From: Candidatus Iainarchaeum sp.
GTDB taxonomy: Archaea; Iainarchaeota; Iainarchaeia; Iainarchaeales; DTGL01
NCBI GenBank assembly: GCA_038736825.1
Contig: JAVYME010000038.1
Coordinates: 1-9,941, forward strand
Direction: 5' to 3'
DNA length: 9,941 nt
Of this stretch, positions 7,027 through 9,199 are shown one piece after another. The number at the start of each line of letters is the position of its first letter. Positions within the stretch are counted from its first letter, which is position 1. Position numbers and translations under genes: made by a program. The notes under the pieces were generated by a model. It was given only the letters and a program-made list of their open reading frames with translations. It made no database searches and had not been told where the DNA came from.

Positions 7027-7788
7027 TTATTTGAAGGCTATCCGGGCTGCCTCTTGAATGGTTGAAACCTCTATTACCTGCATGCCATATTCTTCAAAAA
7101 ACGCTTTGTTCAAGTCAAATTCAACAGGCTCATAATAGACTCTCTGGAAAATAAAACCCCTGCCTCTTTTTTCTTCGGTTTTCCTTTCATAGATTACGCC
7201 TTTTGATTGCCCTGGAGGCACAAGGAAGACTTTTATTCCGTTTTTTGCTGCAGCTGTGCCTTTTTCCACTATTCCGCCAATCTGCCCTATTGAACCGTTT
7301 GCCATTATTGTTCCAGTGATTGCCATGTCCTCCCTTAAGTGTTTTTTTTCTATTGCAGCAATTGTTGCAAGCGTTAAGGCAGCGCCAGCGCTTGGCCCGC
7401 CAACAAGCCTTGATTCTCCAGCGGTAATAGTGTAAATTATGTCTTTGTCTGAAAGGCTTTTTTTAGTGAATTCTTCTGCAACGCTTTTCGCTGTTTCAGC
7501 TGAAAACTGGGTGTCAGGCTCTATGAAGGGGTTAACGCTGAAAAGAACCCTGCCTTTTCCCTCTATTATTTCCACTTCCGCTTGGCTCATTATGCCAGTG
7601 CCATCGCCTGCAACTGCCACAATGTTTGCTTTTGCTGAATAGTTTCCGCTTTCCAGGCTTGCTTTTGGAACCACGGTTTCAGGAACCCTTTCCATTAACG
7701 CGATTTGGGGATACAAAAGCAAGCCAAAAATTATTCCAGTGGCAAGCACAATTAAAGAGAAAAGCAATAATTGAAGGCGCGAGTTCAT
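7027..7788 (-). CDS. S16-family (Lon proteolytic domain) serine protease with an N-terminal TM anchor and no AAA+ module
   Basis: The TM helix is LQLLLFSLIVLATGIIFGLLL. The Lon catalytic motif GGPSAGAA places Ser133 at nt 7390-7392. ITGTI...GSIGQIGGIVEKGTAAAKNG places Lys176. The Ser-Lys spacing of 43 residues equals that of E. coli Lon (S679/K722). The protein is 253 aa in total, so it has no ATPase domain. Confidence 0.85.
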   Translation of the reverse strand: MNSRLQLLLFSLIVLATGIIFGLLLYPQIALMERVPETVVPKASLESGNYSAKANIVAVAGDGTGIMSQAEVEIIEGKGRVLFSVNPFIEPDTQFSAETAKSVAEEFTKKSLSDKDIIYTITAGESRLVGGPSAGAALTLATIAAIEKKHLREDMAITGTIMANGSIGQIGGIVEKGTAAAKNGIKVFLVPPGQSKGVIYERKTEEKRGRGFIFQRVYYEPVEFDLNKAFFEEYGMQVIEVSTIQEAARIAFK

Positions 7789-7883
7789 GAAAAAAACAAT
7801 GCGTGTAAAGTTTTAAGAGTTTGTTGTTTTGGTTCGCTTTAAAACAATCCTGCTTTTTTAAAAAGAGGCGTTCAGAAAAAACA

Positions 7884-7895
7884 AAATATATATAT
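7884..7895 (+). promoter_or_regulatory. TATA-like box (AAATATATATAT), candidate promoter of the Cys-rich lipoprotein gene
   Basis: It lies about 50 nt upstream of ATG 7941, inside the divergent intergenic region shared with the S16 protease gene. Confidence 0.4.
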
Positions 7896-7926: not shown

Positions 7927-7931
7927 GGAGG
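7927..7931 (+). promoter_or_regulatory. Shine-Dalgarno GGAGG for ATG 7941
   Basis: GGAGG is followed by T8-G and then ATG, a 9-nt spacer. This supports 7941 as the real start rather than the track's 7821. Confidence 0.6.
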
Positions 7932-7940
7932 TTTTTTTTG

Positions 7941-9083
7941 ATGAAAAGAAATTTTGTACTGGTTTTGGCTTCACTTTTTGTTTTAATGTTTTTTTTGAAT
8001 GGTTGCACTCAACCTGGCAGCAAAGAACAAACTCCAACGCCTGCTCCAAACATTCAAACTCCAACGCCCACGCCGGCTTTAAGCGGGCCAAAGGATTGCG
8101 GCACCGACATTGATTGCTTTATCAAGGCAGCAGAAAACTGTTCTGAGGCAAGTTACACTTCAATTCGAACGCTTTCCCTTGGATTCATTGAGCACACCAA
8201 CACTTCAAAAGTCGAACTAAGAGGAATAAGCGGGGGAAAATGCTTGTTTTATTTAAAAAATGTCAAGAACGAGTTTGTTTTCAGTCCAGAGTACACTCAA
8301 GAGCAAAAGGACAGCGTTTTGGAAATGTATAAAAAAATGGAAGGCTTGGACATGGTTTGCAAGTATGATATTGCTTATATAAGGCAAATCTTTCAGGACT
8401 GGAAGGCCGGCGGCTGGGAGTCATTGGATGTTGTGCCATGCGAGGGCGACTATGCCAAACTAATGAAGAACGAGAGTGGTTTTATCGCATGTGAAAACTG
8501 TGATTACAACGATAATTTTTTGGGGTCGCCTGGCACTGCAAGCGATGATGGCTGCCCTGCATGTGAAAACTGTGCTTCCGGCAAACAATTGCGAGTGATA
8601 TCCGGCAACATGGATTCTGTAACGGAAGCCTGCCATGATTGCATTTTAGATAAAGACTGCAAGAAAGGATTCCATTGCTTTGAAAAAACTTGCTTGAGCA
8701 ACAGTGTTTTGTTAGGTTTGCCTTCCTGTGAAGGCTTTGACGGCTATATCCCAAACGATCCTTGCAAAAAGTATGCCTGTGAAAACTGCCGGGAAGGCCA
8801 TTTGTCTTGCTATAGTGGCTGGAGCAATTGGCCAAAGGAAATACAATACAAGTGCGTGGAATGCAATGGCTCTGTTTTGTTTTGGAAGCAGTGCAAGGAT
8901 GGCTTTGAATGCAAGGCTTACAAGTGTGAACCGTTGAAAATAGAAACTTGCGACTTGGAGTGCAACAAATTCCATTATAGCAATTGCCCCGAGGGCTGCA
9001 TTCGGAAATGCCTTCCAAGCGCCTGTTCTGGGCAATATTGCACTGCCGACTGTGAGGGACCGGGAAGCTGTTCCTGTCCTTGA
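7941..9083 (+). CDS. Secreted cysteine-rich lipoprotein with a Thr/Pro linker and repeated CxxC modules
   Basis: The signal peptide MKRNFVLVLASLFVLMFFLNG|C carries a lipobox-like L-N-G-C. A TPTPAPNIQTPTPTPA linker follows. By hand count there are about 37 Cys in 380 aa. Repeated units are ACENC (three copies) and C-K-x-G-F-x-C-x4-C (two copies). The protein ends in a dense Cys tail, ...CSGQYCTADCEGPGSCSCP. Confidence 0.8.
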   Translation: MKRNFVLVLASLFVLMFFLNGCTQPGSKEQTPTPAPNIQTPTPTPALSGPKDCGTDIDCFIKAAENCSEASYTSIRTLSLGFIEHTNTSKVELRGISGGKCLFYLKNVKNEFVFSPEYTQEQKDSVLEMYKKMEGLDMVCKYDIAYIRQIFQDWKAGGWESLDVVPCEGDYAKLMKNESGFIACENCDYNDNFLGSPGTASDDGCPACENCASGKQLRVISGNMDSVTEACHDCILDKDCKKGFHCFEKTCLSNSVLLGLPSCEGFDGYIPNDPCKKYACENCREGHLSCYSGWSNWPKEIQYKCVECNGSVLFWKQCKDGFECKAYKCEPLKIETCDLECNKFHYSNCPEGCIRKCLPSACSGQYCTADCEGPGSCSCP

Positions 9084-9084
9084 G

Positions 9085-9093
9085 TTTTTTTTT
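9085..9093 (+). terminator. Oligo-T (T9) termination signal after the lipoprotein gene
   Basis: TTTTTTTTT starts 2 nt after the TGA stop (9081-9083). Confidence 0.5.
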
Positions 9094-9199
9094 AAGAAGA
9101 AAAATTGGGCGGGGTTTGCCGGAGCACTAGCATAACAAAAGCGGCTTTCAAGATGCGGTTCCCTTTTGTTCTCCCGCTTTTTTTTCCTTGTTTGGTTGG

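Follow-up and report, generated by a model that had tools for sequence, protein, structure and literature searches.

A predicted disulfide-rich, modular surface protein of a Candidatus Iainarchaeum and its relatives in ultra-small archaea and bacteria

What might an archaeal protein do when almost every tenth residue is a cysteine, and are the repeats in it of recent origin? These questions are raised by the gene at positions 7941-9083 of contig JAVYME010000038.1, from the assembly GCA_038736825.1 of Candidatus Iainarchaeum sp.; the contig, 9,941 nucleotides (nt) long, was analysed whole and is called the window here. The product is identical to an NCBI protein from a metagenome-assembled genome (MAG) of a Candidatus Diapherotrites archaeon, and its 37 Cys in 380 residues (9.7%) compare with 0-3.6% Cys in the other ten open reading frames (ORFs) of the window. 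DPANN archaea (Diapherotrites, Parvarchaeota, Aenigmarchaeota, Nanoarchaeota and Nanohaloarchaeota) and bacteria of the candidate phyla radiation (CPR) are thought to live attached to other cells, and few of their surface molecules are understood. An earlier note on this DNA had described an exported, lipobox-type, extremely Cys-rich modular protein, a description that our analysis supports. The whole is best explained, at a probability of roughly 0.6, as a disulfide-stiffened modular surface protein that would be tethered to the cell and serve in binding or attachment.

When 1.84 billion cluster representatives were searched exhaustively with phmmer, 391 relatives were returned at E<=1e-3. 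By comparison, a word-indexed homologue search was nearly blind here, recovering the query alone and then two matches for each of two alignment queries. The phmmer matches fall in three non-overlapping ranges of the query (residues 50-172, 201-331 and 333-380), and each range also occurs alone in other proteins. We refer to these ranges as the N, M and C modules (the last also as the C-tail); their frequencies, like the Pfam co-occurrences below, were counted in the best 150 of the 391 phmmer matches (Table 1). The closest relatives, P0002 (348 residues) and P0003 (346 residues), consist of N and M without a C-tail. Pfam and NCBIfam gave no match to the query at E<=10, including the Myxococcus cysteine-rich repeat, Giardia VSP and furin-like CxxC repeats, and no Pfam family at E<=1e-3 covers N, M or C in any of the 150 relatives. 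A sequence search of the PDB with the query found nothing, and profile searches with N, M and C found nothing significant. N, M and C are three extracellular domains unclassified in Pfam, NCBIfam and the PDB. The earlier note had recognised no family, which holds for these databases; however, the protein is no orphan, given its 391 relatives. The annotated domains that sometimes co-occur with the N domain in its relatives are all of surface type (Big_2, PKD, SLH, TSP3_bac and DKNYY). No conserved synteny was found around the homologues, viral contigs scanned for M and C yielded no match, and the GC content of the gene (0.444 vs 0.41 for the window) does not point to a recent foreign origin.

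AlphaFold2, run on a hand-curated alignment of 55 rows (A7) that contained no C-tail rows, produced a model with a mean predicted local distance difference test (pLDDT) of 79, against 36 for single-sequence AlphaFold. The structure prediction proposed by the earlier note was thus confident for N and M, but the C-tail, the linkers and the insertion ahead of M stayed below 50; the C-tail model is unreliable because the alignment gave this region no rows. Foldseek found no match for the model in the PDB or BFVD at E<=1e-3. The N domain, which has hundreds of homologues and is predicted to be alpha/beta, follows the consensus DCGxDxDCFIxAxxxC...GKCxFY...GTCxF...WKxGxFS..D...CEGxYF, and 89 of its 133 copies have exactly six Cys. 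During this work, MAFFT (alignments A3-A6) systematically misplaced the Cys-rich modules: the C-tail attracted the end of M, the CENC motif attracted the tail of the N domain, and M attracted N-domain starts. The attraction is that of the cysteines alone, because hhalign shows no relationship between the C-tail and the second unit of M (probability 0.7%). Automatic alignments of such Cys-rich proteins need checking.

The M module contains two units, A and B, separated by a short segment. Their patterns, read from an alignment of 15 M modules, are C-P-x-C-E-N-C-x-S-G ... C-x-[ED]-C-x4-D-C-K-E-G-F-H-C-F-x3-C-x-x-N for unit A and C-x4-C-E-N-C-x2-G-x3-C ... K-C-V-E-C ... C-K-E-G-[FY]-x-C-x2-Y-x-C for unit B. 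Units A and B are homologous by hhalign (probability 97.4%, E 1.5e-11), so that the duplicated unit described earlier is real. In the 17 homologues aligned for Cys conservation, all eight core Cys of unit B are kept in 17/17. A comparison of repeat number among the same relatives finds both units in the 11 that have a full unit A, while the other six keep a 4-Cys remnant of it. Among further variants, P0007 has one unit ahead of an N domain and P0117 a single hairpin. Because the two units are common to homologues 30-54% identical from Diapherotrites, Woesearchaeota and CPR bacteria, the unit duplication is ancient, and the two-unit structure of M is, as read from these sequences, an old duplication.

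It was the nucleotide sequence, however, that had led the earlier note to propose a recent event. Three ACENC motifs (residues 183, 207 and 279) and two CKxGFxCx4C motifs (CKKGFHCFEKTC at residue 240, CKDGFECKAYKC at residue 318) are present as it described. The first two ACENC copies are encoded by the same 16-mer, GCATGTGAAAACTGTG, at 8487-8502 and 8559-8574, 72 nt apart; the third is encoded by the 11-mer TGTGAAAACTG at 8778-8788. Recent intragenic duplication or gene conversion, with repeat number evolving rapidly in the lineage, would account for the shared 16-mer (19 nt at 95% identity), which uses the minor Cys codon TGT twice. An exact 16-mer pair in 1143 nt of random DNA is expected about 1.5e-4 times. 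Consistent with such an event, the first ACENC, the only copy peculiar to this protein, lies in a segment (residues 173-203) that has no counterpart in P0002 and is different in P0003; its model has pLDDT <50 at residues 181-198. Against it, the nucleotide identity is exact over 16 nt, is 95% over 19 nt and then ends; over the other 56 nt the two 72-nt periods show no relationship, and 1/19 residues is identical after the ACENC. Tandem Repeats Finder reports no array at the ACENC copies. Given the ACENC peptide, the probability of identical codons under the gene's own codon usage is 0.03 per pair and ~0.09 over any of the three pairs, so the 16-nt identity is largely explained by the conserved motif together with codon usage. 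Moreover, the units that contain the second and third ACENC had already diverged by the time the DPANN and CPR homologues separated. We therefore regard recent duplication as very improbable as the source of the repeats. A small recent insertion or conversion at the first ACENC, separate from the main repeat, is weakly suggested by its restriction to this protein and the 16-19 nt that it shares with the second copy.

The distribution of M crosses a domain boundary. Its archaeal carriers are Diapherotrites (the query; P0028, which is MDO8428608.1) and Woesearchaeota (P0144), and P0002 adjoins proteasome and Rpp14 genes. Its bacterial carriers lie on contigs labelled Paceibacterota (JAGLOZ010000053.1) and Moranbacteria (CAMZLB010000052.1), which are bacterial because they contain PilM, ValRS, GatB and full-length FtsK genes. 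P0151, a putative M-containing lipoprotein, is located on a 253-kb contig (L002) with MurB and a Mur ligase. The query M and the Paceibacterota M share 35% identity over 130 residues (E 8e-20). In the CPR proteins (L004 2469-3782 and L005 3075-4934) M is preceded by another unannotated Cys-containing domain (CDAFPNKLDxCEPFSCxFEHPLTGE...GKCxY...). By hhalign, the archaeal N domain and this CPR domain are unrelated (probability 1.3%); therefore, only M is in common. Sequence comparison thus indicates that the whole M module is shuffled among different surface proteins in DPANN archaea and CPR bacteria. The papers found in a check of open-access full text mention neither this sharing of M nor the thioredoxin neighbour described below.

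The C-tail is a domain of its own. The repeated units had been thought to fill the C-terminal two-thirds of the protein, but the last 48 residues are separate from them, as the hhalign comparison with unit B shows. The C-tail consensus is TCDLxCxxYHYSxCPEGCxxxCxxSxCSGxxCTxDCxGPGSCxCP, and at 42-67% identity the domain ends the otherwise unrelated proteins P0050, P0056, P0095, P0100, P0138 and P0141. It also occurs in the metagenome loci L009-L014, usually at the very end of the protein, in tandem as two copies in P0143 and L011, and internally in the large Cys-rich proteins L013 and L014. Its surroundings, where they can be seen, are archaeal (proteasome, aCPSF1 and ribosomal P0 genes around P0056). 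A sorting signal was considered and rejected: the last 48 residues hold 10 Cys and no hydrophobic stretch, end in GPGSCSCP, and form a domain that is internal in L013 and L014. Lacking a hydrophobic segment, the C-tail is neither a PGF-CTERM/archaeosortase nor an LPXTG signal. We also observed mini-proteins of ~70-84 residues (L009 90-341, L012 610-822 and P0050) that consist of a signal or membrane anchor and the C-tail alone.

That the C-tail occurs autonomously speaks for a binding or effector module complete in itself, and raises the alternative that the protein is a secreted or displayed inhibitor or effector, its knotted modules, especially the C-tail, acting as defensin-, TIL- or Dickkopf-type inhibitors or toxins against proteins of a host or competitor. 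Inhibitor and toxin folds typically show such a size and Cys density. The stand-alone proteins of anchor and C-tail (P0050, L009, L012) are in line with this alternative, as is a weak, sub-threshold resemblance to TIL (E 0.14, in 1/9 C-tail members) and to Dickkopf (E 0.0066, in 1/15 M modules). Yet no module matches at any curated threshold, no PDB or BFVD fold was matched (nor did the C-tail profile match any PDB sequence), the modules here are membrane-tethered, and the homologues have no consistent protease or target gene beside them. We consider an inhibitor or effector role improbable.

The earlier note had named disulfide knots and metal binding as options for the cysteines; the former is now better supported, by even Cys counts, paired losses and a thioredoxin neighbour, and the latter less so. 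The mature protein has 36 Cys (six in N, two in the insertion, 18 in M and 10 in the C-tail), which would allow up to 18 disulfides. Even-Cys bias is an accepted genomic indicator of disulfide bonding in exported proteins (PMC2823432). The Cys count of the M module is even in 17/17 homologues (14, 16, 18 or 20), and the mature Cys number is even in 105 of 112 homologues after crude removal of signals or anchors (binomial p 1.5e-23, a value that overstates the significance because the sequences are related). Exactly 10 Cys are found in 12/15 C-tails; two copies have 8 (both in P0143) and two have 9 (P0141 and L014). Losses also occur pairwise: C205 with C234 in P0002, C263 with C290 in P0039, and C362 with C367 in both C-tails of P0143. 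In a related Diapherotrites MAG, the gene directly downstream of P0028 encodes a protein of 394 residues that carries a membrane anchor at its N-terminus and a CxxC in each of its three thioredoxin-like repeats (CTNC, CTEC and CSEC); its Pfam matches are Thioredoxin_3 (28.4 bits against a cutoff of 24.8) and Thioredoxin, also above cutoff. This protein is a plausible candidate for an extracytoplasmic thiol oxidase of DPANN archaea. CPR genomes, for their part, are enriched in MdbA-like oxidoreductases and VKOR (bioRxiv 10.1101/335083).

If the protein were instead a metal-binding surface protein, the CxxC pairs C208/C211/C231/C234 and C280/C283/C305/C308 would form zinc-ribbon-like Cys4 sites, and the remaining Cys, and possibly those of the C-tail, would bind more metal, for metal capture or storage or as structural Zn. 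The spacings CxxC-x19-CxxC and CxxC-x21-CxxC, with a predicted beta-hairpin between the knuckles, suit this alternative, and a presumably anoxic habitat would favour thiolate-metal sites. The best PDB match of the M profile is to a TFIIS/RPB9-type zinc ribbon, 1qyp, but at E 0.23 it is below significance, no zinc-ribbon Pfam family matches the query at E<=10, and Foldseek gave no match. Zinc ribbons are characteristically intracellular, whereas the query carries an export signal. The putative site of unit A is also dispensable, as in P0002 C234 is replaced by Phe and C205 is missing, and six homologues have kept just C234 out of the four "ligands". Cys losses come in twos, not fours; the C-tail, with 10 Cys or 8 after a pair loss, is unlike sets of four; and the protein adjoining P0028 is a putative exported oxidoreductase of thioredoxin type. 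We judge disulfides throughout to be quite probable and zinc in the CxxC pairs unlikely.

Export is suggested by a signal peptide of MKR, 16 hydrophobic residues and L-N-G-C, of which lipobox positions -3, -1 and +1 fit the pattern [LVI][ASTVI][GAS]C. Lipobox-like motifs of the form [hydrophobic]-x-[GAS]-C recur in homologues: LSAC in P0002, IAGC in P0004, VSGC in P0028, INGC in P0144 and LSGC in P0151. Several homologues have canonical boxes, P0144 has the same Asn at -2 as the query, and the lipobox regular expression matches in 42 of 150 homologues. Archaeal lipobox proteins are documented, the machinery being unknown as of 2018 (PMC6098224). The query may be lipidated at Cys22. The Thr/Pro-rich stretch that follows, also noted earlier, might be glycosylated, and its pLDDT <50 is consistent with a flexible stalk. 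Within it, CAAACTCCAACGCC occurs as an exact 14-nt repeat at 8028-8041 and 8055-8068, 27 nt apart, each copy encoding QTPTP; this is the second short in-frame nucleotide repeat of the gene.

Taken as a disulfide-stiffened, tethered surface protein, the product would be exported through its N-terminal signal peptide and held in the membrane either by the lipobox Cys22 or by an uncleaved signal anchor. The Thr/Pro stalk would keep the modules off the membrane and display three compact domains stiffened by disulfides, of which M would be a tandem pair of homologous ~50-residue beta-hairpin units from the ancient duplication. The result may be a rigid, protease-resistant binding or attachment surface, with a host cell, a polymer or the cell's own envelope as partner. 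Anchor, stalk, knotted and shuffled modules, and lineages believed to live attached to cells together point to this role, so that a rigid surface function in binding or attachment is probable by analogy.

Several points weigh against this picture. The Asn at lipobox position -2 is atypical. The window's 11 ORFs include no oxidoreductase or thiol oxidase; the candidate for the disulfide-forming system that the earlier note had suggested looking for lies beside P0028 in a related MAG. Even Cys parity is also compatible with 4-Cys metal sites, and the four CxxC cysteines of unit B are kept in 17/17 aligned homologues. Each of the six truncated forms has lost C205, C208, C211 and C231 yet retains C234, a co-loss in unit A that, as the sequences read, does not fully fit one fixed pairing. 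The taxonomic labels of MAGs are open to binning errors, although the CPR contigs carry sets of genes that are clearly bacterial. Lastly, the basis of the binding or attachment role is architecture and analogy, and the protein may instead have a purely structural role.

Two things would follow from the tethered, disulfide-rich reading. Three unclassified modules, one of them on both sides of the archaea/bacteria divide, would provide attachment-protein candidates open to testing, as well as a marker with which to trace genes exchanged between the two radiations. With as many as 18 predicted disulfides, and with the thioredoxin neighbour of a homologue, the question also arises of how minimal organisms of often anoxic habitats fold such proteins outside the cell. 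A bolder version, which we think unlikely, is that the M module and the C-tail are new disulfide-rich families confined to ultra-small, presumed episymbiotic DPANN and CPR lineages (the labelled sample being small), that M crossed domains and serves in attachment to or recognition of host cells, and that Diapherotrites fold these proteins oxidatively by way of the adjacent triple-thioredoxin oxidase. If this is an ordinary structural surface protein, the value of the finding would be limited to the annotation of three new domain families.

The gene itself looks intact and independently transcribed, since a GGAGG motif and a TATA-like element precede it and nine T follow its stop codon. Start at the ATG, and not at the in-frame TTG at 7821, is favoured by the GGAGG ahead of it, and it agrees with the NCBI model (380 residues) and with the N-termini of the homologues. 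By its position, AAAATATATATAT at 7883-7895 may be an archaeal promoter element. Downstream, a GC-rich patch at 9104-9185 neither folds significantly nor matches an Rfam family, and the intergenic remainder beyond the nine-T run likewise has no significant fold (z 0.74) and no Rfam match.

Table 1 Coordinates of the gene, its domains and other features, with modelling and homologue counts
Feature	Residues	Position (nt)	Strand	Basis or content
Complete coding sequence		7941..9083	+	NCBI hypothetical protein QXK06_05485
TATA-box-like A/T-rich element		7883..7895	+	46-58 nt upstream of start codon; sequence reading
GGAGG, Shine-Dalgarno-like		7927..7931	+	9 nt upstream of ATG 7941
Signal peptide		7941..8006	+	MKR and hydrophobic core, ending in lipobox-like L-N-G-C (Cys22, 8004-8006)
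Thr/Pro-rich linker	23-50	8007..8090	+	Sequence; AlphaFold pLDDT <50
N module (phmmer range)	~50-172			135/150 best matches
N domain	51-172	8091..8456	+	Alpha/beta, six conserved Cys (53, 59, 67, 101, 140, 167)
N domain, model				Three-stranded antiparallel sheet, helices, further strand; pLDDT 86-97 per 10-residue block
Lineage-specific insertion/linker	173-203	8457..8549	+	First ACENC (C184, C187), 16-mer 8487-8502
Linkers and first-ACENC insertion, model				pLDDT <50
M module (phmmer range)	~201-331			17/150 best matches
M unit A	204-253	8550..8699	+	8 Cys; holds second 16-mer (8559-8574)
Inter-unit segment	254-273	8700..8759	+	Conserved C263 (PSCxG)
M unit B	274-331	8760..8933	+	9 Cys; holds third ACENC (11-mer 8778-8788)
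M module, model				Short beta-hairpins 217-232, 244-253, 304-306, 322-331; pLDDT mostly 76-97 per 10-residue block
C module (phmmer range)	333-380			8/150 best matches and 6 more distinct metagenome loci
C-terminal mini-domain	332-380	8934..9080	+	10 Cys
C-tail, model				pLDDT <50
Oligo-T run, terminator-like, nine T		9085..9093	+	Directly 3' of stop codon
tRNA-Arg (anticodon TCT)		5699-5772	+	ARAGORN and Rfam both
Triple-thioredoxin gene (L016)		10935-12119 of JAUSKK010000040.1	+	Diapherotrites MAG GCA_030649345.1; 68 nt downstream of P0028 (N+M), same strand

Its neighbours in the window are ordinary archaeal housekeeping genes, among them A/V-type ATPase subunit D, a deacetylase and a cytidine deaminase. 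The divergent neighbour at 7027-7788 (-) encodes 253 residues with an N-terminal hydrophobic anchor and a Lon_C (S16) proteolytic domain without the ATPase part, and is possibly an exported or membrane-bound peptidase. Further upstream, a 133-residue ORF at 2174-2575 (+) has a GC content of 0.505 (window mean 0.41) and no Pfam match, and a second long ORF (2229-2546) lies across it in a different frame; Rfam at E<=1 found no family around the former, save a chance-level match just upstream at 2046-2162. The 662-residue ORF at 42-2030 (+), near the contig edge, is weakly PKD-like in its N-terminal part, has a transmembrane segment around residue 520 and gives a weak RecX_HTH1-like match in its C-terminal part, a mix of predicted domains that would be odd for a surface protein.

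Several known systems resemble parts of the protein. In bacterial-type and haloarchaeal lipobox proteins (PMC6098224), too, a lipobox-like motif and its invariant Cys close the signal peptide, and a flexible linker comes next; the query differs in having Asn at -2 instead of A/S/T and in coming from a DPANN archaeon. With the zinc ribbon of the TFIIS/RPB9 C-terminal domain (1qyp) the query shares two CxxC knuckles ~20 residues apart on a beta-hairpin; in contrast, it is exported, has extra Cys around the knuckles, and loses its unit A "ligands" singly or in threes. Relaxed Pfam scans of all members found sporadic sub-threshold resemblance to the eukaryotic disulfide modules Dickkopf, Dumpy DPY and TIL. 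The Dickkopf/colipase-type modules (PF04706, PF21481) have in common with M the pattern C-x5-(D)C-x2-G-x2-C-x4-C on a beta-hairpin and an extracellular, all-disulfide context. These are eukaryotic families, however, without a Foldseek PDB match, and the matches (1-2 of the 15 M-module sequences, E 0.0066-1.9, none for the query) all lie below the gathering threshold, which makes this a resemblance of motif, not membership. Similarly, TIL (PF01826) resembles the C-tail in being extracellular, the C-tail having 10 Cys in about 45 residues, but the C-tail spacing Cx3C-x7-Cx3Cx3C-x4-C-x4-Cx3C-x5-CxC is unlike that of TIL.

Modular, Cys-rich surface proteins are already known as a class from ultra-small prokaryotes. 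Large Cys-rich extracellular proteins of CPR bacteria (Peribacteria) have been proposed to provide rigidity or attachment (PMC4736985). Compared by description only, those proteins are about 1,650 residues long and have weak similarity to the Myxococcus Cys-rich repeat, of which the query has none. The likeness lies elsewhere: both are exported, very rich in Cys (7% there, 9.7% here) and without functional annotation, and both belong to ultra-small, presumed symbiotic organisms, the M module of the query being present in CPR genomes as well.

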